From: an uncultured delta proteobacterium
GTDB taxonomy: Bacteria; Desulfobacterota; Binatia; UBA9968
Direction of reading: 5' to 3'
Length of the DNA: 64,000 nucleotides
Assembly: GCA_963745835.1 (NCBI GenBank)
Contig: CAVUZH010000020.1
Coordinates: 128,001-192,000 of the forward strand
Shown: one piece after another, positions 32,339 to 61,297 of the stretch
Layout of the letters: each line of letters begins with the position of its first letter
How positions within the stretch are numbered: position 1 is the stretch's first letter
Notes under the pieces: model-generated
Told to the model about the DNA's origin: nothing
The model's input: only the letters and a program-made list of their open reading frames with translations
Database searches by the model: none
Translations under genes and position numbers: made by a program

Positions 32339-33049
32339 TTAGATCCCTTTCATCAAACCGGCGAGTTCTGTCTTAGCAGCATTGTGATCCCAGATCTTCT
32401 GAACCACCGAGTCTTTGCGGCGCTGTTTCATGACCCTTTGTGTCTCGTCCTCGTTGTAAATTATGACAGGTCCCAGCAATGAAGCTTTATAGAACCGCGA
32501 CGCCGCTTCTTCCAAGTCCACACATCCGGCGAATACCCATTCGATCGAATGAGCGACGACCATCGACCCATGACCGCGCAGCATCACGGCATCCGCGGCG
32601 CCAAGCGCTTTTGCCACTGCGTCGCCCTGCTCTATCGTATGAATCAGTGCTGGGTCCATGTAAACAGGTAATGGTCCCGGGCCAAAAAAAGCGCCAGGAT
32701 TGGAAGAAGCTGGATAGAACGGTTTGTCAACCATGCTCAGGATGGCAACCATATGATTGTGCAGATGAGCGACACTTTGGATATCGCTACGGGCTCTATA
32801 GGCCCGCGCGTGCATATTAACCTCTGACGGCGCTTTGTATTTGCCTTCGATCAATTTCCCATCGAAATCGGTGATCACCATATCGTCCGGTTTTACCGTA
32901 GCGCGACTTACCGGGTGTGGCAGGATAACAAGGTGATCAGACCCGGGAATACGCGCGCTAATATGACCGCTGTAATCGACTAATCCGGCGTTGAACAACA
33001 TGCGGGACGACATAGCGAGCTTTTTTTTGATCTCTGATAATTCCGACAC
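32339..33049 (-). CDS. Class II aldolase/adducin family protein
   Basis: SGHISAR, PSEVNMH, AHLH and LRGHG Zn-site pattern. GAGGAG SD and TTGAAC-N17-TATAGC upstream. Confidence 0.9.
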   Translation of the reverse strand: MSELSEIKKKLAMSSRMLFNAGLVDYSGHISARIPGSDHLVILPHPVSRATVKPDDMVITDFDGKLIEGKYKAPSEVNMHARAYRARSDIQSVAHLHNHMVAILSMVDKPFYPASSNPGAFFGPGPLPVYMDPALIHTIEQGDAVAKALGAADAVMLRGHGSMVVAHSIEWVFAGCVDLEEAASRFYKASLLGPVIIYNEDETQRVMKQRRKDSVVQKIWDHNAAKTELAGLMKGI

Positions 33050-51879: not shown

Positions 51880-54560
51880 TTAAGCGTGAGCTTCCGCCCA
51901 ATTCGGGCCCACATGGATATCGACGTCAAGGCCGCAGCGAAGATCCGCAGCTTGAGTCATCGCTTCCTCGATCAAAGCCCGAGCCTGCTCAAGGTGCTCG
52001 ACAGGAATCTCGAAGACGAGTTCGTCGTGCACAGTCAACAGCATCTTTGCAAGCGGTTCTCTACGCAACGCTTCACCCACATTGATCATAGCCTTCTTTA
52101 TGATATCTGCGGCGCTTCCCTGTATCGGGGTATTGAGCGCCATACGCTCGCCGAGCGCTCTTAGCCGGAAATTTGACGAGCCCAATTCCGGCAAATAGCG
52201 ACGGCGGCCAAACATCGTGGTCGTAAACCCGTCGATCTTGGCTTGGTTCACCTGCGCGGCTAGAAACTCTTTCACTTTCGGAAATTGCGCATAATAGGCT
52301 TCTACAAAACTCGCTGCCACGTCCATTTCTACGCCGAGCCGTTGCGATACTCCGAAAGTGGACATGCCATAGGCGATGCCATAAGAAAACTGTTTTACCT
52401 GGTTGCGCATCTGCGAGGTCACTTCAGCCAAAGCGATACCGTAGACTTTCGCCGCGATGGTGGCGTGAAAATCATGCCCCTGCGCAAAGGCTTGCAAAAA
52501 AGTTTCGTCTTGCGACAGATGCGCGAGAACACGCAGCTCAATCTGAGAGTAATCCGCTGATAACAGCACATGCCCCGGCGGCGCAATAAAGGCGCGGCGA
52601 ATCTGACGTCCCAGCTCACCACGTATCGGTATGTTTTGCAGGTTGGGTGCGGTTGACGACAAGCGTCCAGTGGCAGCCGTCGTCTGCTCGTAAGTGGTAT
52701 GGATTCGATTGCTTTTGCTATCAATCAGCTCCAACAGCATCTCCGTAAAGCCGGTCTTTAGTTTCGATACCTCTCGATATTCGAGCAGGACTGGAATGAT
52801 TCGATGCACCTCGGCCAGCTTCTCCAATTCGGCAGCGTCGGTGGAAAAACCCGTCTTGATTTTCCTGGTCTTGGGTAGACCGAGCTTTTCGAAGAGAATC
52901 CGCTGGAGCTGTGGCTGCGAGTTCACCTTGAAGTCTTCGCCGGCGAGATCTTTGATTGCCCGTTCAAGCGCGGTTATTTTGTTTCCTAAATCGGCATCGA
53001 ACTTTTCAAGATAATCGCGGTCGATGAGGATGCCATTATGTTCCATTCTGGCTAGTACGCCAATTAGTGGGAATTCCAAGGTGGTGGCAAGTTCCCAGAT
53101 GCCTTGCTCGCTGAGCTGCTCTTGCAGTATGGGAACCATGCCGCGGATAGCCATAGCTTCACGAGCGATGCGCTCTTTTTCTGGGGCGCCGAAGGCAAGA
53201 GTACTTTGTTCGCCGATCGCCAGTTCGGGTGCGTTGCCGTTGAGCAAAACCCCCAGATAACGTTTCGCCGCGTCAGCCAGCGTGTATCCAGAGGCTGATC
53301 CCGGCTCCAGTAAATAGGCGGCAATCTTGGTGTCACAGTAGAATGATCGAAATTCGATACCGACCGTCAAAGCTAAACGATAGATGGATTTGGCGTCATG
53401 AGCCACTTTCAACCGCACAGGATCTTGAAAAAATTCCCCGAGCCGGTCCATTGCTGCGCCCATGCCCAGCGTGTGCACCTCGCCAGGCCCATCACAAACA
53501 GCCAGCCAATTCTCGCTCCAAGCCAATGCGACGGCGCCATCTTGTTTGATTTCGTCAGCCGATCTCAATTCCGAGATTGATTTTGGTTCGAGAGCCGCGC
53601 CGAGAGGCACCGAAACGTGCATATTCAGCGCTCTCAAACGTTCGTGTAAACTACGGAACTCAAGTGAGGTAAAGAGCTTTAGAACTTCTTCATCATCCCA
53701 GCGCTCGAGGCACAGTTTGGTTGAATCGAGTTCGAGTACAACATCATTGAGTAACCGTCCCAGCTCTTTATTGATCCGTACCTGCTCGGCGTGCGCTTTG
53801 ATCGAATCGCGAAGTTTGGGTGTGAGCTCATCCGCATGCGCGATGATGCCTTCAATATCGCTATACTTCTTGACCAGCTGAGCCGCGGTTTTGTCGCCAA
53901 CCCCGGGAATACCAGGAAGATTATCGGAGGGCTCGCCCTTGAGCGCCACGAAATCGAGCCACTGATCCGGGAAACGCCGTAGCGCTCGATAACCGTAGGC
54001 GCGTCATATCGGATGACATCGGAGATTCCGCGGCGAGTCATGATCACCGATACCCCTTCGCCTACAAGCTGGAGAATGTCTCGGTCACCGGTGACGACGA
54101 TTACTTCGCAGCCTTCACCACGGCAATTCTTGGTCAGCGTCGCTAACAAGTCATCGGCTTCATAGCCCTCGAGCTCGACAATCGGAATTCGCAGAGCTCG
54201 AAGCACCTCTCGAATCAATGGCAGCTGCTGCCTGAAAAGATCCGGAGTCTCCGCGCGACCCGCTTTATAGGCAGCATAACGATCGAGGCGAAACTGCGGC
54301 GCGCCTTTATCGAAGCAAACTATGACAGCTTGCGGCCGCTCGTCGGCCAAAAGCTTTATGAGCATGGAGGTGAAGCCGAAAACGGCATTGGTCACCTGTC
54401 CGGAAGATGTGATCAGCGTGTCGGGCAATGCAAAAAAAGCGCGGAACGCGAGAGAGTGACCATCGATCAAGATGATCTTGCGCAGGTTATTTCTAGACCG
54501 GGCACTATCGGTTGATCCAGCCGATTTTTTGCTTGATTGATTTTTGTTTTTAGCGCTCAC
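51880..54560 (-). CDS. polA: DNA polymerase I with a 1-nt frameshift at ~53970 (probably a sequencing error)
   Basis: 5'-3' exo motifs DGHSLAFRAF, EADD, TGDRD and SDNLPG; polymerase motifs TGRLSS..PNLQNIP, ADYSQIELR and LTVHDEL. One extra C restores ERYGVSPDQWLDFVALKG. Confidence 0.95.
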
Positions 54561-54688: not shown

Positions 54689-56254
54689 TTATTTACGCCA
54701 AACTAAAACGCTCGGACTCGCTCCTCCGTCCGACAGCAATGTCTCGCTGTGGCGAATGACTTTTCCCGAAGAGGTACGCGGTAGCGACTCACGGATGACA
54801 ATCTTTTGCGGCACTTTGAAATTTGCCAGATTAGCGCGCAGAAAACTTATCAACTCCTTTGTTGCGATCGCATGGTCTGGCCGGGGCACTACCGCAGCAC
54901 CGATCACCTCACCCCGCTTCGGATCAGGGATGGCAAAGACAATGGTCTCTTGCACGTTCGGAAAGCTGTAGATCAGGTTTTCCACCTCGGCGGGGTACAC
55001 GTTAAGACCGCTGGTGATGATCATATCGTCAAGTCGACCGAGATGGATGAAGTAACCGTCCGAGTCCCGTTTGCCGACATCGCCGGTGTAAAACCAGCCG
55101 TTACGAATGCGCGCTGATGTGGCCTCTGCTTTGCGAAAATACCCTTTCATCACATGGGGACCACTCGTAATGATTTCTCCCGGTTCATCGACGGGCAGTT
55201 CCCTACCGGACTCATCGACGATTCTTACTTCGACTCCCGGTACTGCGCGGCCAATACTTCCCAACTTGGCTTCGGCGTGCTCCGGTTCAACCAGGGTGAT
55301 CATCGGCGAAGTCTCGGTCAAGCCATAACCCTGGATAAGTGCGATGTGCGGCTGAGCTGAATGAAATGCGCGCAGGAGCGGCAACGGAACCGTAGTCCCC
55401 ATCATGGCGGCGATCTTCACGCTGCTGGTGTCATATTTCGAAAGATCGCGCACCCCTAGGAGAAGTTGAAAAACAATCGGCACGCTTTCAAAGACACTAA
55501 TGCGATATTTCTGAATGCCGTCCAACAAGGTAACGGGGTTAATTTGGTCGAAAATGACTAGAGTGAATCCTTTTTCGGCCACTTCATTGCAGACCAACGG
55601 GCCAACGATGTGCGACATCGGCAGGATGCAGCCCCGGATCGTGCTCGAATCGGTGATGCCCATAGCGGTCATGACACGCGGGTACTGCGCCAGATTGCGG
55701 TAACTGAGGACCACGCCTTTGGGTTCGCCTGTGGTCCCTGAAGTATAAAGAATCAGTGCCTCGTCGTCAGCCTGCCGTCGCGGCGCGAGCGCTGATCGAG
55801 GCGGTGCCGCGTAGCGACTTTCAAAGGACTGTTCGCCCTCGCCTTGGACAATCCATATTGATACTGGGGTGAGCTCTTCGAGGACATTGGCCACTTCGGA
55901 GATCAGCTGCTTATGGACAACCAGGAGCTTGAGATCCGCATCGCACAAGACGTCCTGTAACTCCTTGCCCCTCAATCGGGCATCAAGGAGCACGCTCACT
56001 GCGCCGAGTTTTTGACTAGCAAAATAAATCAGCGGAATTGCCGCGCAATTTGGTAACAGCACTCCCACTCGATCGCTTTGTTTGATCCCTTCGCTGTGCA
56101 AGTGACCGGCTAGAGCATGCACCCGCGCGTTAAGAACCGAAAAGCTCAGTTCTTCTTGCTTGTCAATGATCGCGGTTTTGTTTGGATGCTTTCGTGCTGC
56201 TTGGTCGAGCAACTCCGCGGCGAAAAATCCTACTGAATCGATATGGTTTGCCAC
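54689..56254 (-). CDS. Class I adenylate-forming enzyme (acyl-CoA ligase)
   Basis: YTSGTTGEPKG, GYGLTET, YTGD, R.DDMI..G.NVYP.EVE and PRTSSGK motifs. Confidence 0.93.
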   Translation of the reverse strand: MANHIDSVGFFAAELLDQAARKHPNKTAIIDKQEELSFSVLNARVHALAGHLHSEGIKQSDRVGVLLPNCAAIPLIYFASQKLGAVSVLLDARLRGKELQDVLCDADLKLLVVHKQLISEVANVLEELTPVSIWIVQGEGEQSFESRYAAPPRSALAPRRQADDEALILYTSGTTGEPKGVVLSYRNLAQYPRVMTAMGITDSSTIRGCILPMSHIVGPLVCNEVAEKGFTLVIFDQINPVTLLDGIQKYRISVFESVPIVFQLLLGVRDLSKYDTSSVKIAAMMGTTVPLPLLRAFHSAQPHIALIQGYGLTETSPMITLVEPEHAEAKLGSIGRAVPGVEVRIVDESGRELPVDEPGEIITSGPHVMKGYFRKAEATSARIRNGWFYTGDVGKRDSDGYFIHLGRLDDMIITSGLNVYPAEVENLIYSFPNVQETIVFAIPDPKRGEVIGAAVVPRPDHAIATKELISFLRANLANFKVPQKIVIRESLPRTSSGKVIRHSETLLSDGGASPSVLVWRK

Positions 56255-57234
56255 AGCAAAAAGGCCCTCTCGAATGGTTTGTACCAGCGCGCGAGCTGCG
56301 CCAGCTCGCCGCGCTTAAGTTTTAAGTTGCCCTGCTGAGTTGCAAGAAAAGGATCGACGCGGGCTCGAAACACTGCGCTCCACCACTCTTCTGAGCCGCT
56401 GATCATAAACTCACCGCTATCACCCCGTTCAAGCTGCGTGATCTGGCCAGAGTCAAAACGCACGGTCCAGGCTGCGTCCTTTTCTTCAAGAAAAAGCGTC
56501 AGGGATGTAGAGAGGCCGGTCTCTTCCCCGTGAGAACGAAATTGAGAATCATGGTTCGCGCGCTCCACCAAAGCGGACATGTGCTCTTTCGAGAACAACA
56601 CATAAGATTCACGCGTCTGTGGATCGGCGAGGCCCTTTTGTTGTGTTATCCGATCCGCAATCGAAGCGTTCGATTCACTTCGAAGCTCCATGAAAAACCG
56701 GCAACGCACAGCTTCTTCCAGTAAATCGGTAAGCAAAAAGGTCTCTTGAAGATTCCTGCCGATAGCCACCGTGCCATGACCCTTGATGATGGCGACCGGA
56801 CGGTACTTTAATTCTTCTGCTAACCTCTCGGGCTTTGTTACCGTCGGCGTATCCTGAGCGACTATCGGAACTTCGCCAATTGTATACTTCTCCTCAAAAC
56901 TCACCGGAACGAAATGATCATGGGTCAATGAAAATGCCAGAGTCATGGGTGGATGAACATGAACGATGGCTTGTGTCCCGCTGGCTGCATACAGAGCCAA
57001 ATGCAGAGGCGTCTCGCTCGATGCAAGCTGGTCTCGGTTAAGCGGCCTGCCGGCGCCATCAATCCGCACCAAATCTGCCGCTGTTAAAAAACCAAGGGGT
57101 GCATGCCGCCCCGTGATCAAAAACTCGTTCTCTCTAACCCGACAACTGAGATTTCCGCCCCAGCCGCTGATTAGATGACGGTCAAACAGCAGCTTGCCCC
57201 ATTTGATCATCTCTCCTTGGAGCTTCTTCATCAT
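56230..57234 (-). CDS. Class II aldolase fused to a C-terminal SCP2 (sterol carrier protein 2)-like domain
   Basis: GGNLS.R, SSE..LH, HVHP and GHG. C-terminal F.ISGS.E.W..V....DPF.A..QG.LKL..G pattern is SCP2-like. Confidence 0.85.
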   Translation of the reverse strand: MMKKLQGEMIKWGKLLFDRHLISGWGGNLSCRVRENEFLITGRHAPLGFLTAADLVRIDGAGRPLNRDQLASSETPLHLALYAASGTQAIVHVHPPMTLAFSLTHDHFVPVSFEEKYTIGEVPIVAQDTPTVTKPERLAEELKYRPVAIIKGHGTVAIGRNLQETFLLTDLLEEAVRCRFFMELRSESNASIADRITQQKGLADPQTRESYVLFSKEHMSALVERANHDSQFRSHGEETGLSTSLTLFLEEKDAAWTVRFDSGQITQLERGDSGEFMISGSEEWWSAVFRARVDPFLATQQGNLKLKRGELAQLARWYKPFERAFLLWQTISIQ

Positions 57235-57251
57235 TCTAGTCTCAAAATTCG

Positions 57252-58758
57252 TTAAACAACTCCCAGCGGTATGACTTCGCTTTCGAGGGGAAAGATTGAG
57301 GCTCCGCTGGGACAAATATTTTTTCCCATGAACGTCGAGACATCGTTATCAATACTCAATCTCTCAACTGAATCAGACGCGCAGCAGTTCAACGGGTACG
57401 CCATGGGCGCGCGCCAATTCAAGTGCCAACAATGAGCCACAGATAACACTGGCTCCCTGCGGGTCGAGCCGGCTATAGTAGAGGTAGAGCTTACTGATTT
57501 CGGCCCGGGCGAAAAAAAATCCTATCATGTTGTCAGAGATCAGAGTCGTCGGCAGATCGTGCTCAAGCAGCGCCGGCGCCACGGCATGAACGCCCCACAT
57601 ATGCGGCCGCATTTCCGGAATCAAGAAACGGCTGGCTCGCTCAGCTTTCAGCGCACCGACTAAGTGATCGCACTGATCTGAAGGCGGGATACCATAAAGG
57701 AGCAGGTACTTGCTTCCATCCTTTATCGGGCCAGGTTCTGGGGCTCTCTGCTGCTGGTACTTTCGGCGGAAACTTTCAGGTGTGTAGACACCGTCAAAAC
57801 CAATAAGATGCGTAATTAACGGCCCGGGCGTAACATCAAAAGCAGGATAGCGGACCGCAACTCTAGCGTCGGCTATCAGCTGCCGTCCTTGGAAGCTTAG
57901 CAGCTCTGCGCCCGGCCTTTCTTCGATCGGCACATCGCTCCCTTGCACCAACGAACGCGGGTCTTGAACCAGCACGTGAAAAGGAACTCCGTATCGCTTT
58001 GCCATTACCGCCAGCGGATAGGTGCCGACTTTGTTGATGATATCGCCATTCTGTGCCGCACGATCCGAACCGACGACGACTGCATTGACTTCGCGTCGAG
58101 CCATCACCTGGGCAATGGCGCAATCGGGAATCAGTGATACGCGAACGCCTCCTCGTGCGAGCTCCCACGCGGTTAGTCTCGCGCCTTGCAGGTACGGTCG
58201 GGTCTCCGTGGCGATGACGGCGAAGTCTTTGCTCATCGTCGCGCAATGCTGCGCTATCGCCAACAGTTCTCCACTCATGTTGCAGTGGGTCAAAAGCCGC
58301 GCCGGGTCCGGCAAAAGCTCGGCAGCGCGCTTTGCTCTTGCACCCCGGGCACGGACTATCTGCGCGGCGAAATCACAAGCCCGCTCGCTAATCCACTCAC
58401 CGGCACTCACGTTTCCCGGCAGCTTTTCAAACCACTCGTCGAAATATTGACTCAGTCCGCGGAAATCGAATGTCGGTCGCGCTCGGCAGAACTCGTGGGT
58501 CAGTTGATCGATCGATTTTCGCAGCGGGGGGATTTCCTTCGCGTGATAGTTTTGCGCCAGGAGCGCACCGCTATAGAGGAACGTAAGGACTTGACCAAAG
58601 GCACGCGTTTTCATCTCACGCACAGCATCGATGGCCTGCGAAGCATCTTTGACGCTGATATATTGGATCTGCTCGGGAAGCGAAATCTCATTGAGAATTC
58701 GAAAACCGCCACCTTCCCATAGAACCGGCTCAAAAAGCGGACTTTGTACCGAATTCAT
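57252..58758 (-). CDS. MtnA/eIF2B-family isomerase with a second degenerate C-terminal domain; frameshift at ~57381
   Basis: RPT, LTHCN, ETRPYLQGARLTAWEL, GSDR..NGDIINKVGT and PAFDVTP; second copy PEMRP..G, LISDN. The reading continues in another frame as DNDVSTFMG..ICP.G....LESEVIP to the stop at 57252. Confidence 0.85.
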
Positions 58759-58781
58759 AAACGATCTGCAGTTGCACCAGG

Positions 58782-59516
58782 CTAAAAGTACTTGAGAGCT
58801 TGGCGGGCAACCGCAATGATTTTCTCTTCGGCTGCGAAAAACAAAGGGTCACGAAACCCGAATTTGGCGTGCAAACACTCATCCGACACGGCAAGAATGG
58901 CACCGGCCTTTTTCTTTCGAACTTGAGCGATCGTCAAAAAAGCCGAGGTCACCATGTCGATGCTCGAAACATTTTGTTCTGTGAGTTGCGCGATCAATTC
59001 CGGCGTTTCCTGGAATAGCGCGTCAGTGGTAAAAATCCAGCCCAGATGGAAGCGCACCTGCAGGCTTTCCGCGGCTCGCTTCAATGCATCGACTATCTCG
59101 GGGTGAGCCACGGTGGAAAAATTATTCGCCACGTAATAGGGCGATGTGCCTTCACCGCGCAGGGCTCCGGTTACGATGATCAGATCGCCAATCTTCACAT
59201 GCTCCTGCAACGAGCCGCAACTTCCGACGCGGATCAGCGCTCGGGCGCCGGCGCCGCAAAGAATTTCGGTGGTAATCGCCGTGTCCGGAGCGTAGCGCCC
59301 GCCATTGCCGACGGTTACTCTCTTTCCGTCCAGAGTTCCGGTGTGCATCTCGTAATCCAGGAACGTGAAGTTTTTTTGCGGTTGATCCAACATACTCAAA
59401 AGCAATTGGCTGCGATCCTTCGGGCCGGGAATCAAGGCATAAGGACCGAGAGAATCGGCCTTCAGCCCGAGCATCGAGAGCATTCTTTGCGGTGTAAAGT
59501 GAGCTTCTTTGAGCAT
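58782..59516 (-). CDS. Nucleoside phosphorylase (NP-I, Udp/DeoD-like) with an atypical active site
   Basis: IPGPKDR, IRVGSCGSL, ALRGEGTS..Y, TTDALF and AVSD motifs; DMV in place of EME. Confidence 0.88.
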   Translation of the reverse strand: MLKEAHFTPQRMLSMLGLKADSLGPYALIPGPKDRSQLLLSMLDQPQKNFTFLDYEMHTGTLDGKRVTVGNGGRYAPDTAITTEILCGAGARALIRVGSCGSLQEHVKIGDLIIVTGALRGEGTSPYYVANNFSTVAHPEIVDALKRAAESLQVRFHLGWIFTTDALFQETPELIAQLTEQNVSSIDMVTSAFLTIAQVRKKKAGAILAVSDECLHAKFGFRDPLFFAAEEKIIAVARQALKYF

Positions 59517-59519
59517 TGA

Positions 59520-60743
59520 TCAAACAGCTTGGCCGACAAACTCAATCAGATCTTGGGTCGGCAGAGCAGGCTGTTCAAGCGCATTGAATGAGCGCTGGCA
59601 TAACGCGCTTGAAGTCAAAATCAATTCGGCGCCGGTCTCCTTCGCCTCACGCATACGATCGGTTGCGCTCCATTGAGCGAGGCTCGGATCGGCTTCAGGA
59701 ACACCGCCACCGCCGCCGCAGCACCATGCCCAACGTTGGTTCCGTGTCATTTCCACGACCTCGACTCCAGGAATGGCGCGCAAAATGGTGCGCGGCGCTT
59801 CGTATATGCCGCAACCTCGCCCCAAATGGCAGGAATCGTGGTAAGTAACTTTTTTTCGAATCGGTCTGGTCATTTTCAACTGACCCGCCCGTAAGGCGGC
59901 TTCGAGATATTCCACGCCATGCAAGACTTCCAAATCGGCGGCACCAACTTTGGCATTCTCTCGCCAAATGCGCCGGCAACTGCCGCAAGCAACCACCAGC
60001 CTTCGCACTCCACCTTGCGTAATTACGGCCAGGTTTTCCTGTTGCAGACGCTCGTACTCGCGCCGAAATCCGAGATCGTACGCATGCAACCCGCAGCATT
60101 TTTCCTGATCACCGAGGATAACAAAGTCCTCGCCTGCCTTTTGCATCAGCTTGGCTAAGGCCACGACACCGGCGCGGCCGCTTGACTGATCGGCGGAGCA
60201 ACCGGCGAACAACAGCGTCGGGGCATGTCGCTCAGCAATTTTAGCCAGCCCCAATCCGTCGGCCCAAAAGCCGCGTTCTGCCCTCGTTTGTGACCAGGGG
60301 TTATCGTGTTGCTGCAAGCCCTGGTATAGCTGGCGATGAGCGGCAATCGGACCCTCTTCCTCAGTGATCTGCTCGCGCATGGCAACCGTAATATCCCATG
60401 GGCCGTAACCGTCAGCCCGGACGCCGCAAAGCTCCTGGCACATCAGGCAGGTTGTACAACTATAGACGATTTCCTTGAGTTCGGGCGTGATCGGGTCAAG
60501 CCCGTGAAAGACACGCTGCGCCATCAGCCAACGCGACTTTGGCGTGTGGCGTTGGAACCGATAAAATTCATACGGAGGGCACTTCTCTTTAGGCCCGGGA
60601 ACGTCTTCCATCGGATTGGCCGGGCCGTGCCCATAACAGGAGCCGCATAAAACACAGCCACTGCTGCGCGCATTTAGATCTTTGGCATAAAGCCATTTTT
60701 TGACCCGCTCTAGGCCGAGGTTCTTTTTGGATTCGTCTTGCAC
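59520..60743 (-). CDS. Fe-S oxidoreductase with ferredoxin-like and two CCG domains (HdrD/GlpC-like)
   Basis: CVLCGSC...CP, CTTCLMCQELC, FAGC, EKCCG, ACGSC, YHDSCHLGR and WCCGGGGG motifs. Confidence 0.9.
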   Translation of the reverse strand: MQDESKKNLGLERVKKWLYAKDLNARSSGCVLCGSCYGHGPANPMEDVPGPKEKCPPYEFYRFQRHTPKSRWLMAQRVFHGLDPITPELKEIVYSCTTCLMCQELCGVRADGYGPWDITVAMREQITEEEGPIAAHRQLYQGLQQHDNPWSQTRAERGFWADGLGLAKIAERHAPTLLFAGCSADQSSGRAGVVALAKLMQKAGEDFVILGDQEKCCGLHAYDLGFRREYERLQQENLAVITQGGVRRLVVACGSCRRIWRENAKVGAADLEVLHGVEYLEAALRAGQLKMTRPIRKKVTYHDSCHLGRGCGIYEAPRTILRAIPGVEVVEMTRNQRWAWCCGGGGGVPEADPSLAQWSATDRMREAKETGAELILTSSALCQRSFNALEQPALPTQDLIEFVGQAV

Positions 60744-60786
60744 AGTATGAAGCGTGTAAGATCCGCAGCTGTTTGAAGAAATGAAA

Positions 60787-60831
60787 TCTTAAGACATTAA
60801 TTGTATAGCCCCAGACAAACTGGCGTGTCAA
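60787..60831 (-). promoter_or_regulatory. Operon promoter with a candidate operator palindrome
   Basis: TTGACA (60831-60826)-N18-TATACA, then the TCTTAAGA palindrome (60787-60794) near the predicted start site. Confidence 0.55.
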
Positions 60832-60835
60832 CAAA

Positions 60836-61297
60836 CTAGCTTAGATGGACGAGCTCGGCGTGATTCAGCAGCTTTCGTAGCAAGGCGGAGAGTTCTTTCT
60901 GATGCGAAAGATCGAGCGAAGAAAAAATTGCAGATACACTTCTCTCAAAGAGAGGAATTGTGGTCTTGTATAAGTTGGCTCCTTTATCTGTCAATGTTAC
61001 GTGAACAACACGGCGGTCGGTTGAGTCGCGCTTTCTTACGACCAGTTTTTTTTGCTCAAGCCGGTCAACGATACCGGTTAGATTGCTGACCGTCACCATC
61101 ATCTTAGCGCCGATCTCGCCAAATGGGAGGCTGCCTGCGTAACCGATGGTTGCGAGTACGTAGAACTGTGGCGGTGTTAAACCGACTTTGCCAAGATCAG
61201 ATTCCAACTTTTTATGCGATGAGAGATTAAACCTTAAAAACCGCACCCAGAGACTCGTGCTGTAGGAAGCAAAAAAGAGACGTTTTTCGACTCGCAC
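60836..61297 (-). CDS. MarR family transcriptional regulator
   Basis: GLTPPQFYVL, SNLTGIVDRLE and DRRVVHVTLTDKG winged-helix motifs. Confidence 0.93.
   Translation of the reverse strand: MRVEKRLFFASYSTSLWVRFLRFNLSSHKKLESDLGKVGLTPPQFYVLATIGYAGSLPFGEIGAKMMVTVSNLTGIVDRLEQKKLVVRKRDSTDRRVVHVTLTDKGANLYKTTIPLFERSVSAIFSSLDLSHQKELSALLRKLLNHAELVHLS

Follow-up and report, generated by a model that had tools for sequence, protein, structure and literature searches.

The window examined here is a stretch of 64,000 nucleotides (nt) from an uncultured delta proteobacterium (GTDB lineage Bacteria; Desulfobacterota; Binatia; UBA9968; GenBank assembly GCA_963745835.1, contig CAVUZH010000020.1, positions 128,001 to 192,000), and our subject is a group of six genes at positions 54689 to 61297, which we consider as a candidate module for the trimming of nucleosides. 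These open reading frames (ORFs) are co-directional, all on the minus strand, and Pfam and NCBIfam scans of the window ORFs assign them to the families given in a preliminary description of the same DNA. From the first gene onward, they encode a MarR regulator, a CCG-domain iron-sulfur protein, a nucleoside phosphorylase, an MtnA-like isomerase, a class II aldolase fused to an SCP2 domain, and an acyl-coenzyme A (CoA) ligase. The downstream neighbor is polA, and upstream lie a divergent gene for an MBL-fold hydrolase and a gene for a DacA-like carboxypeptidase. The genome of the window, here G000 (7.28 Mb, 97% complete), carries it on contig C20.

Spacings along the operon are 92, 3, 23, and 17 nt, followed by a 25-nt overlap, once two gene models have been corrected; with these corrections in place, the gaps of 3, 23, and 17 bp and the final overlap reported in the preliminary description stand. 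The MtnA-like ORF of the raw window has 461 amino acids (aa), while 119 of its 120 best database matches have 503 to 517 aa (the exception, P0026, has 372 aa at 81% coverage) and 40 of 41 related loci have 497 to 516 aa. Its frame departs after ...GVPVELL, where the conserved tail of the relatives continues, and the cause appears to be a 1-nt insertion at 57379 that the relatives read through. A public contig from run X3, otherwise identical over 57268-57445, is missing one base at this position (depth of about 3, single contig); this restores the frame, and the MtnA-like gene therefore runs from 58758 to 57252. The aldolase starts at the ATG at 57234, giving 334 aa as in relatives, and not at the TTG at 57315. 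A second indel affects polA, which is split into overlapping ORFs in different frames (53679-54560 and 51880-53949), is read in one frame in the relatives L005 and L006, and has an extra G behind 53968 in contigs of all three runs covering the site (X3, X15, and X16). The assembly thus carries indel errors, and we treated the breaks at 57379 and 53968 as artifacts, probably of assembly. In one related contig (L034, 2866-5382) from a metagenome-assembled genome (MAG), the MtnA-like and aldolase-SCP2 genes form a single ORF of 838 aa, which may be a genuine gene fusion or may stem from a sequencing error.

A pattern scan of one genome per species identified 49 related loci, in records labelled mostly as Candidatus Binatia or "Deltaproteobacteria" MAGs. 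Order and strand of all six genes are unchanged in 34 of these 49, with aldolase identities as low as about 53%; contig ends truncate the remaining 15, each of which holds a contiguous subset in unchanged order. The synteny on which the preliminary description had staked its proposal is thus conserved in other genomes. The flanking dac and mbl genes are conserved in the related loci too, so part of this synteny reflects lineage inheritance. The module contigs L052, L021, L017, L029, L043, L050, and L023 (55 to 88% identity) come from MAGs under the labels Heimdallarchaeota, Chloroflexota, Udaeobacter, Verrucomicrobiia, Actinomycetes, or Pyrinomonadaceae, and some of these contigs also carry the dac and mbl flanks. 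Mis-binning or mislabelling seems a likelier explanation of these labels than transfer.

The phosphorylase (58782..59516, minus strand, 244 aa) is of the hexameric type and scores 118.6 bits against PNP_UDP_1. Its best NCBIfam model is uridine phosphorylase (136 against a cut-off of 280), with further matches below cut-off to DeoD-type phosphorylases and AMP nucleosidase and a score of 28 against the HpnG cut-off of 187; the MTAP model TIGR01694 is absent from the 13 NCBIfam families that match the protein. Alignment with enzymes in the PDB indicates that the RVGSCG phosphate motif, the N-terminal His6, and the VSD motif are retained, while the protein reads IDMVTS (M-V) where the aligned PDB phosphorylases read M-E. 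The Glu replaced here is, we assume, the residue that binds the ribose 2'- and 3'-hydroxyls in Escherichia coli purine nucleoside phosphorylase and uridine phosphorylase. The Val189 found in its place is shared by all 38 family members, and by all 9 sequences of a set with distant relatives included; this bears out the altered ribose site of the preliminary description. We also aligned the window protein with 120 of 150 listed 50%-identity representatives (those of at least 190 aa). Glu occupies the site in 95 of these 121 sequences and V, I, or A in 14 of the 15 nearest representatives; by this alignment, the Glu-less phosphorylases therefore form a distinct clade.

The MtnA-like aldose-1-phosphate/ketose-1-phosphate isomerase (57252..58758, minus strand; about 501 aa in intact relatives; 187.7 bits to IF-2B) passes the subfamily model TIGR00524 (192.2 against 185.85) and falls under the MtnA equivalog cut-offs (TIGR00512, 215 against 279; NF004326, 239 against 271). 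Residues C159 and D232 are invariant in the family and align with the catalytic Cys and Asp of Bacillus subtilis MtnA (2yrf), with a 7-residue deletion following the catalytic-aligned Cys. As the preliminary description had noted, the protein carries an extra domain: its C-terminal 170 or so residues match positions 126 to 210 of the IF-2B profile, making a partial second IF-2B domain. An AlphaFold model of the intact isomerase of L005 (pLDDT 90.6, pTM 0.91) matches Thermotoga maritima MtnA (1t9k_A) over its core with a Z score of 30.2, and a structure search with this 501-residue model gave no specific match for the extra domain, the best partial one being 1a9x_A (Z 7.7, residues 347 to 460). 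In 7 of the 13 distant loci described below, an ORF of its own, about 155 aa long, encodes the extra domain.

The third enzyme is a class II (Zn, dihydroxyacetone phosphate [DHAP]-type) aldolase of 334 aa with a C-terminal SCP2 domain (56230..57234, minus strand; Aldolase_II, 125 bits against 22.2). Its invariant residues N28, T41, S72, S73, E74, H92, H94, and H153 align with what we take, on the residue numbering of FucA, to be the phosphate, metal, and catalytic positions of that enzyme. The protein also scores weakly against the NCBIfam ribulose-1-phosphate aldolase model. In a structural model (pLDDT 83.7), residues 2 to 190 match 2fk5_A with a Z score of 26.6, and the DrdA structures 6btd and 6btg are matched as well. 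Judged from these alignments, the phosphorylase, isomerase, and aldolase all retain an intact and invariant set of catalytic residues for their core steps. The core chemistry, in which a nucleoside would be converted to its base, DHAP, and an aldehyde, is well founded.

In the tail of the aldolase, the window sequence itself scores slightly below the Pfam SCP2 cut-off (20.0 to 20.3 against 21.3), and 21 of 24 family tails match this model (best E value, 2.4e-6); a profile of the tail matches the Thermus SCP2 protein (1wfr/2cx7) at an E value of 1e-5. With the entire aldolase model as query, the Foldseek listing against the PDB comprised aldolase-fold entries and adducin chains (members of the class II aldolase/adducin family) and nothing else, and it was uninformative on the tail. 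A wider structure search matched model residues 211 to 332 to 2cx7_B (Z 18.2; root mean square deviation, 1.7 Å; 120 of 130 residues), with many other SCP2 proteins behind it at Z scores of 8 to 10. On the evidence of profile and model, the tail is a genuine SCP2 fold, as expected from the lipid-binding type of domain first described on this aldolase. The fusion is full length in all 28 aligned aldolase sequences and recurs in other phyla, in proteins source-named Desulfofervidus and Omnitrophota MAGs, one of which, source-named Candidatus Desulfofervidus auxilii MAG, is 100% identical to the aldolase of locus L085. In a class-level sample of 301 genomes, the tail was found in 24, all of the window's own family (23 of 25 plus G000; the two family genomes without a match are 87% and 78% complete), and in none of the 275 genomes of 19 other families.

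These enzymes are present in addition to housekeeping counterparts. G000 carries a true MtnP on contig C3 (TIGR01694, 309 against 275) and a true MtnA on C15 (TIGR00512, 435 against 279), and all five distant module genomes examined keep a separate high-scoring IF-2B protein (300 to 324 bits) along with further PNP_UDP_1 proteins. By these scores, the window enzymes are additional, divergent copies beside MtnP and MtnA. Class II aldolases are numerous in G000, with about 16 paralogues, and a further gene of this family lies within the window at 32498-33022 (G000:C20:160498-161022; 114 bits to Aldolase_II).

To look beyond the family of the window, we searched a phylum-level sample of 401 genomes with a profile of the SCP2 tail, which gave 16 positive genomes, and we fetched 13 distant loci (L078 to L090) and one locus (L091) from the window's own family. 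The trio of phosphorylase, isomerase, and aldolase-SCP2 is retained in 8 of the 13 distant loci at 31 to 44% identity, in operons that are tight by ORF clustering and domain scans (for example, in L085), and trio and ligase recur together at the same identities in unrelated contexts with different flanks. A B12-binding radical S-adenosylmethionine (SAM) enzyme is encoded in the trio operons of 7 of the 13 loci, an aldehyde dehydrogenase in 6, and an acyl-CoA ligase in 6, while an MMPL/HAE3 RND transporter, LolA-like/DUF1329 proteins, and DUF1302 proteins each occur in 7. The aldehyde dehydrogenase of the relatives is nearest to non-acylating aldehyde dehydrogenases and lies under the equivalog cut-off, and their radical SAM enzymes, like the G000 orthologue described below, lie below the cut-offs of the BchE, HpnR, HpnJ, and P-/C-methylase models.

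By these annotations, distant relatives appear to encode the very dehydrogenase and ligase steps that had been postulated for the window, among proteins typical of the traffic of hydrophobic molecules. The proposed logic of aldehyde oxidation followed by CoA activation of the acid is thus mirrored in the co-operonic genes of relatives. The wider claim of the preliminary description, an extended DHAP shunt acting on a hydrophobic substrate, gains indirect support from these operon neighbors, and its substrate is still a matter of inference.

Some of the distant loci depart from this pattern. Locus L090 (G035:C7:57000-76999) encodes a MarR regulator, MMPL, LolA-like, and DUF1302 proteins, a Zn-alcohol dehydrogenase, a DeoC/LacD-type aldolase, the aldolase-SCP2 fusion, the ligase, and a phosphomutase, and an ORF and domain scan of the locus found no phosphorylase, isomerase, or radical SAM gene. 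Its alcohol dehydrogenase and DeoC-like gene have 57%-identical orthologues at G000:C15:124223-126241, close to another class II aldolase match. Certain lineages have a larger gene set, with two ketosynthases among its members, adjoining or close to the module. The large conserved cluster seen in L094 to L097 (G144:C4, G039:C1, and G205:C2) encodes two B12 radical SAM paralogues, a ketosynthase pair, a cyclase, a START-like protein, an SDR, an amidohydrolase, an aldehyde:ferredoxin oxidoreductase, a glycyl-radical enzyme with its activase, a desaturase-like flavoprotein, and an FMN reductase. The G205 copy shares the contig of the module and begins about 5 kb beyond it.

In G000 the radical SAM enzyme of the relatives has a single clear orthologue, full length and 42% identical, encoded at C18:168739-170220. 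It belongs to a second conserved operon (G000:C18:168739-174462; L092, 7740-13463) that encodes the B12-binding radical SAM enzyme, an SDR, a GlcD-like FAD_binding_4 flavoprotein, a TenA/heme oxygenase-like protein, and an O-methyltransferase. This arrangement is repeated in 11 of 15 stretches from genomes of the same or a neighboring family, with one of the remainder cut by a contig end and three giving no matches. The GlcD-like flavoprotein is unusually conserved (83 to 91% identity) and scores 81 against the GlcD equivalog cut-off of 568.

Since the module is split over two loci here, its functional links can be tested by co-occurrence and by prediction of a cross-locus complex. In the phylum sample, the radical SAM subfamily is present in 14 of the 16 aldolase-SCP2 genomes versus 4 of the 385 others, at a threshold of at least 41% identity that was chosen after inspection of the data, and this co-occurrence spans several families. 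In the class sample, the orthologue occurs in 24 of 25 family genomes plus G000, in two of three genomes of the neighboring family, and nowhere else. The module follows this one subfamily although the genomes that carry it hold many radical SAM enzymes.

The iron-sulfur protein (59520..60743, minus strand, 407 aa) resembles HdrD and GlcF, with an N-terminal 4Fe-4S dicluster (Fer4_8, 28.7 against 27) and two CCG stretches (104 bits). It scores far under every NCBIfam equivalog cut-off, including those of GlcF (32 against 333), GlpC, TfrB, and DsrK, and its best PDB match is 9ojn_A, an "iron-sulfur-binding reductase." GlcF-type CCG/ferredoxin proteins usually serve FAD_binding_4 flavoproteins, and NCBIfam describes LdhH and YdiJ as single-chain fusions of flavoprotein and CCG-type parts. 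We therefore predicted a complex between the window protein and the GlcD-like protein of C18, the one G000 flavoprotein with which it was paired. With family alignments, the pair scored 0.85 and the best control 0.00; 58 of 80 solved complexes attain this mark, as do 2 of 110 mismatched pairs. Contact agreement between runs is at least 83%, partner pLDDT is at least 87, and the predicted interface places the ferredoxin-like N terminus of the CCG protein (residues 19 to 110) onto the flavoprotein.

Among the loci examined, the CCG gene lies inside the module solely in those of the window's family. One of the 13 distant loci, L085, has a CCG-like match, which is weak (35% over 87 residues) and about 4 kb past the ligase. 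The preliminary description had cast this protein as the oxidizer of the aldehyde, an assignment that is not supported, given this restricted distribution, the canonical aldehyde dehydrogenase in 6 of the 13 distant loci, and the predicted GlcD-like partner. The complex model supports binding to this partner as a prediction, and we read the CCG protein instead as a putative subunit that carries electrons for a flavoprotein dehydrogenase acting in the pathway of the module.

At the end of the operon, the acyl-CoA ligase (54689..56254, minus strand, 521 aa) overlaps the aldolase stop by 25 nt and is a member of the ANL family (AMP-binding, 284 bits; AMP-binding_C, 65.8). It reaches no NCBIfam cut-off; the nearest model is PRK06187, of the long-chain-fatty-acid-CoA ligase subfamily (424 against 476), and the nearest structures are feruloyl/fatty-acyl-CoA synthetases and FadD13. 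The ligases of L086 and L090 are 43 to 44% identical to it. At the other end, marR (60836..61297, minus strand, 153 aa; Pfam MarR, 59.5 bits against 24.6; no equivalog reached) keeps its position in the related loci that extend that far. The variant cluster L090 is also headed by a MarR protein, which is 40% identical to that of the window and has it as its best G000 match.

An inverted-repeat search for a MarR operator returned a single weak 11-nt pair, inside marR, and a promoter and terminator scan gave no signal (promoter-like sites, 3 found and 4.7 expected; terminator-like sites, 7 found and 9.7 expected). Near-identical DNA was found in soil and rhizosphere metagenomes from 12 studies. 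All six genes are overlapped by contigs of two soil RNA libraries (X15 and X16; 95 to 99% alike), in which DNA carry-over is possible, and this gives weak support for expression. Depth in these libraries derives from contigs and yields neither a ranking of expression nor a transcript structure, and uncovered bins carry no meaning.

From these parts we tentatively favor the reading that the module trims a hydrophobic 5'-substituted adenosine adduct, and that the window holds the form of this module found in one family, which belongs to a lineage mostly labelled Candidatus Binatia in public records. The phosphorylase would remove the purine from a 5'-substituted adenosine-type nucleoside to leave a pentose-1-phosphate, which the MtnA-like isomerase would convert to the ketose-1-phosphate. 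The class II aldolase would then split the C3-C4 bond, releasing DHAP and an aldehyde that keeps ribose C4'-C5' and the 5' substituent, while the fused SCP2 domain would hold the hydrophobic product or substrate. After oxidation of the aldehyde, the acyl-CoA ligase would form a CoA thioester. The nucleoside would be supplied by the co-occurring B12-binding radical SAM enzyme, here encoded at the second locus (G000:C18). The operon would be under the control of the MarR protein, and the CCG protein would be the iron-sulfur partner of the GlcD-like flavoprotein encoded beside the radical SAM gene. The observations behind this scheme are the gene content and its conservation, the retained catalytic residues, the SCP2 fold, the co-occurrence, and the predicted interface of CCG protein and flavoprotein; we infer the substrates of all steps, the flux direction, and the connection of the radical SAM product to the phosphorylase.

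Several features argue for a hydrophobic adduct. The SCP2 fusion is obligate, and phosphorylase and isomerase are maintained in divergent form next to housekeeping copies. The module is tied specifically to one radical SAM subfamily and has lipid-type neighbors in relatives. In the variant cluster L090, the aldolase-SCP2 stays with ligase, transporter, and MarR despite the absence of the other trio members and the radical SAM gene. Others weigh against it. No known adenosylating enzyme occurs in any module cluster examined; we know of no characterized B12 radical SAM relative that transfers the 5'-deoxyadenosyl group, and what B12 radical SAM enzymes do release is plain 5'-deoxyadenosine, whose disposal could be all that the trio does. 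The loss of the ribose-binding Glu does not fit readily, since the 2'- and 3'-hydroxyls are still needed in later steps; a DprE1/DprE2-like epimerization of the sugar by the C18 flavoprotein together with the SDR was considered as a conceivable explanation and set aside. The assignments of ligase, aldehyde dehydrogenase, and phosphorylase all lie below curated equivalog cut-offs, the modeled SCP2 fold is no proof of lipid binding, and the predicted complex of CCG protein and flavoprotein may mirror a general likeness to GlcD/GlcF rather than a specific pairing. The sampled genomes are related and often incomplete, and the class-level co-occurrence counts as one event because it is confined to a single clade.

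Nor are the aldehyde dehydrogenase, transporter, and LolA/DUF1302 genes adjacent to the module in G000. The homologues of the relatives' aldehyde dehydrogenase in this genome are generic matches at 29 to 31% identity, and ORFs on C19, beside an HAE3-like gene, are 22% identical to the DUF1302/LolA-like proteins; we dismissed both as parts of the system, the similarity being too weak. The C19 stretch (G000:C19:137461-142818; L093, 3462-8819), in which the DUF1302/LolA-like ORFs, a Ycf48/BNR-like protein, and an HAE3-type transporter fragment adjoin lnt, could correspond, remotely, to the export genes of the relatives.

A bolder form of the proposal would make SAM a two-carbon donor, which we regard as possible, if unlikely. 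Here the radical SAM enzyme would attach the 5'-deoxyadenosyl group to a greasy acceptor, and the trio would trim it to -CH2-CHO, to be oxidized and activated with CoA; adenine and C1'-C3' (as DHAP) would be cut away, and C5'-C4' would remain. Such an undescribed "adenosylate-and-trim" homologation would feed lipid or polyketide-type pathways in several uncultured lineages, and the family of the window would run it from two unlinked loci joined by the flavoprotein/CCG dehydrogenase.

Dedicated disposal of 5'-deoxyadenosine is a serious rival to the trimming of a hydrophobic adduct, if on balance an improbable one. In this case an ordinary DHAP shunt would clear the 5'-deoxyadenosine (perhaps also 5'-methylthioadenosine) released by the radical SAM enzyme to adenine, DHAP, and acetaldehyde, the last going on to acetyl-CoA, and the SCP2 domain and lipid-type neighbors would belong to the lipid pathway of the radical SAM enzyme and not to the nucleoside. 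Class B radical SAM enzymes do release 5'-deoxyadenosine, module and radical SAM gene are neighbors in 7 of the 13 distant loci, and aldehyde dehydrogenase and ligase formally fit the conversion of acetaldehyde to acetyl-CoA. The order of enzymes is also exactly that of the phosphorylase-type DHAP shunt, or 5-deoxyribose disposal, as set out in PMC6079011. Such a role accounts poorly, however, for the canonical-type MtnA and other PNP_UDP_1 proteins already kept in all six module genomes tested, or for an attachment to one radical SAM subfamily among the many in these genomes. The aldolase, moreover, is always fused to SCP2, and the phosphorylase has lost a ribose-binding Glu that is present in the aligned 5'-deoxyadenosine enzymes. 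Further, the ligase is closest to long-chain, aromatic, and medium-chain ligases, not to acetyl-CoA synthetase, and L090 retains the aldolase-SCP2 although it has no radical SAM, phosphorylase, or isomerase gene.

Three other explanations fare less well. The pathway could run in reverse, with the ligase activating a fatty or aromatic acid, an aldehyde being formed from this acid, and the aldolase-SCP2 condensing the aldehyde with DHAP; isomerase and phosphorylase would then build a long-chain pentose-1-phosphate or a 5'-C-alkyl nucleoside for modification by the radical SAM enzyme. Purine nucleoside phosphorylases are reversible, and the export-type neighbors (MMPL, LolA-like, DUF1302) and ketosynthases of relatives suggest a product that is made. 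Aldol cleavage equilibria, too, favor condensation, according to a passage of PMC6079011. Yet the relatives' aldehyde dehydrogenase is nearest the non-acylating type, which works from aldehyde to acid, and the window encodes no carboxylate or acyl-CoA reductase. We also know of no such lipid, and we consider biosynthesis in this direction very improbable.

We hold equally little expectation of ordinary nucleoside or pentose catabolism, or of no single pathway at all, with ligase, CCG protein, and MarR as mere conserved neighbors and the phosphorylase acting on a common nucleoside or AMP ahead of a route like the archaeal pentose-bisphosphate pathways. The sub-cut-off phosphorylase models (uridine and DeoD-type phosphorylases and AMP nucleosidase), the weak ribulose-1-phosphate aldolase match, and the inherited part of the synteny marked by the dac and mbl flanks would all suit it. 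It is countered by the lack of a ribose-1-phosphate kinase or phosphatase, by an isomerase nearer MtnA (215 to 239 bits) than ribose-1,5-bisphosphate isomerase (121 bits), and by the recurrence of trio and ligase at 31 to 44% identity amid different flanks. The preliminary description had named adenosylhopane as one candidate substrate, to be processed to a C32 hopanoid aldehyde, acid, and CoA ester, and had suggested testing for a correlation with hpnH and shc. There is a precedent, described in PMC13459092, in which HpnH joins the 5'-deoxyadenosyl radical to diploptene and HpnG, a PNP homologue, takes off adenine, and the phosphorylase does match HpnG weakly, at 28 bits. This score is nevertheless far from the cut-off of 187, and the best G000 matches to hpnH and shc are 42 against 225 and 19.7 against 431. 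Both genes are below cut-off in the five other module-bearing genomes as well, and thus in all six, in runs that had no positive control, the 14 control genomes being likewise below the cut-offs. We therefore rejected adenosylhopane as an endogenous substrate and leave it only the faintest chance. A futalosine-type substrate was also considered and set aside because nothing pointed to it, in an analysis that included no search for mqn genes.

If a lipid-linked adenosine is indeed trimmed, this would be a new use of SAM, with ribose as a two-carbon source, and would give widespread uncultured bacteria of soil and sediment a new way to make functionalized lipids or starter acids; by records and source names, the lineages concerned are Binatia-labelled MAGs, Desulfofervidus relatives, and Omnitrophota. 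It would also give functions to the Glu-less phosphorylase clade, the aldolase-SCP2 fusions, and the B12 radical SAM subfamily. Should the module prove to be only a private 5'-deoxyadenosine shunt, it would still show salvage built into the pathway of one radical enzyme.

Full-text literature searches, supplements aside, found no account of either the gene set or an aldolase-SCP2 fusion, so that within the literature searched the preliminary description was right to know of no operon of this composition. The main text of a 2026 review of lipid-modifying radical SAM enzymes (PMC13459092) contains neither "aldolase" nor "adenosylation," and its passages on adenine removal concern HpnG and hopanoids. 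The closest known system is the DHAP shunt, or 5-deoxyribose disposal, which comprises MtnP or MtnK/DrdK, MtnA/DrdI, and Ald2/DrdA in the account given in PMC6079011 (see also PMC10986504 and PMC12632272). The module would share with it three reaction types in the same order (formation of a pentose-1-phosphate out of a 5'-deoxy-type nucleoside, aldose-to-ketose isomerization by a member of the IF-2B/MtnA family, and class II aldolase cleavage into DHAP and an aldehyde), and the residues aligned with the catalytic ones are conserved. It differs in a phosphorylase that is of the DeoD/Udp type without the ribose-binding Glu and is not MtnP, in an isomerase that carries or partners an extra partial IF-2B domain, and in an aldolase fused to SCP2. 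A ligase is added, with an aldehyde dehydrogenase in relatives, and MarR and CCG proteins are present. The module, moreover, tracks a B12 radical SAM subfamily, is accompanied in relatives by lipid-export and ketosynthase genes, and stands in a genome with separate housekeeping MtnP and MtnA.

To our knowledge, the only lipid precedent for the proposed logic is the HpnH/HpnG start of hopanoid synthesis. There, too, a radical SAM enzyme is followed by a PNP_UDP_1 enzyme that strips adenine from a lipid-linked adenosine (PMC13459092). Here, by contrast, no HpnH, HpnG, or cyclase passes its cut-off, the partner radical SAM enzyme is of the B12-binding type, and the module would leave two carbons where the hopanoid route keeps the whole ribose carbon chain. 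In Streptomyces cattleya, 5'-fluoro-5'-deoxyadenosine passes through a phosphorylase, an isomerase, and an aldolase to fluoroacetaldehyde and on to an aldehyde dehydrogenase. This fluorometabolite route likewise turns a 5'-substituted adenosine into a two-carbon acid bearing the 5' substituent, whereas the module lacks a fluorinase or chlorinase-type SAM enzyme and has the SCP2 fusion, the ligase, and the B12 radical SAM partner. The CCG protein, for its part, has the layout of GlcF and HdrD, Fer4 plus two CCG domains, and its predicted docking to an FAD_binding_4 protein recalls the GlcD/GlcF and YdiJ/LdhH dehydrogenases; it departs from the GlcD/GlcF type in scores far under cut-off (GlcF, 32 against 333; GlcD, 81 against 568) and in genes that lie on different contigs. 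Among loci of the module, the window thus adds a soil lineage with fused isomerase parts, in which aldehyde dehydrogenase, transporter, and ketosynthase genes are non-adjacent, MarR and CCG proteins are added, and the partner radical SAM enzyme resides at a second locus, linked to the module by co-occurrence and a predicted complex.

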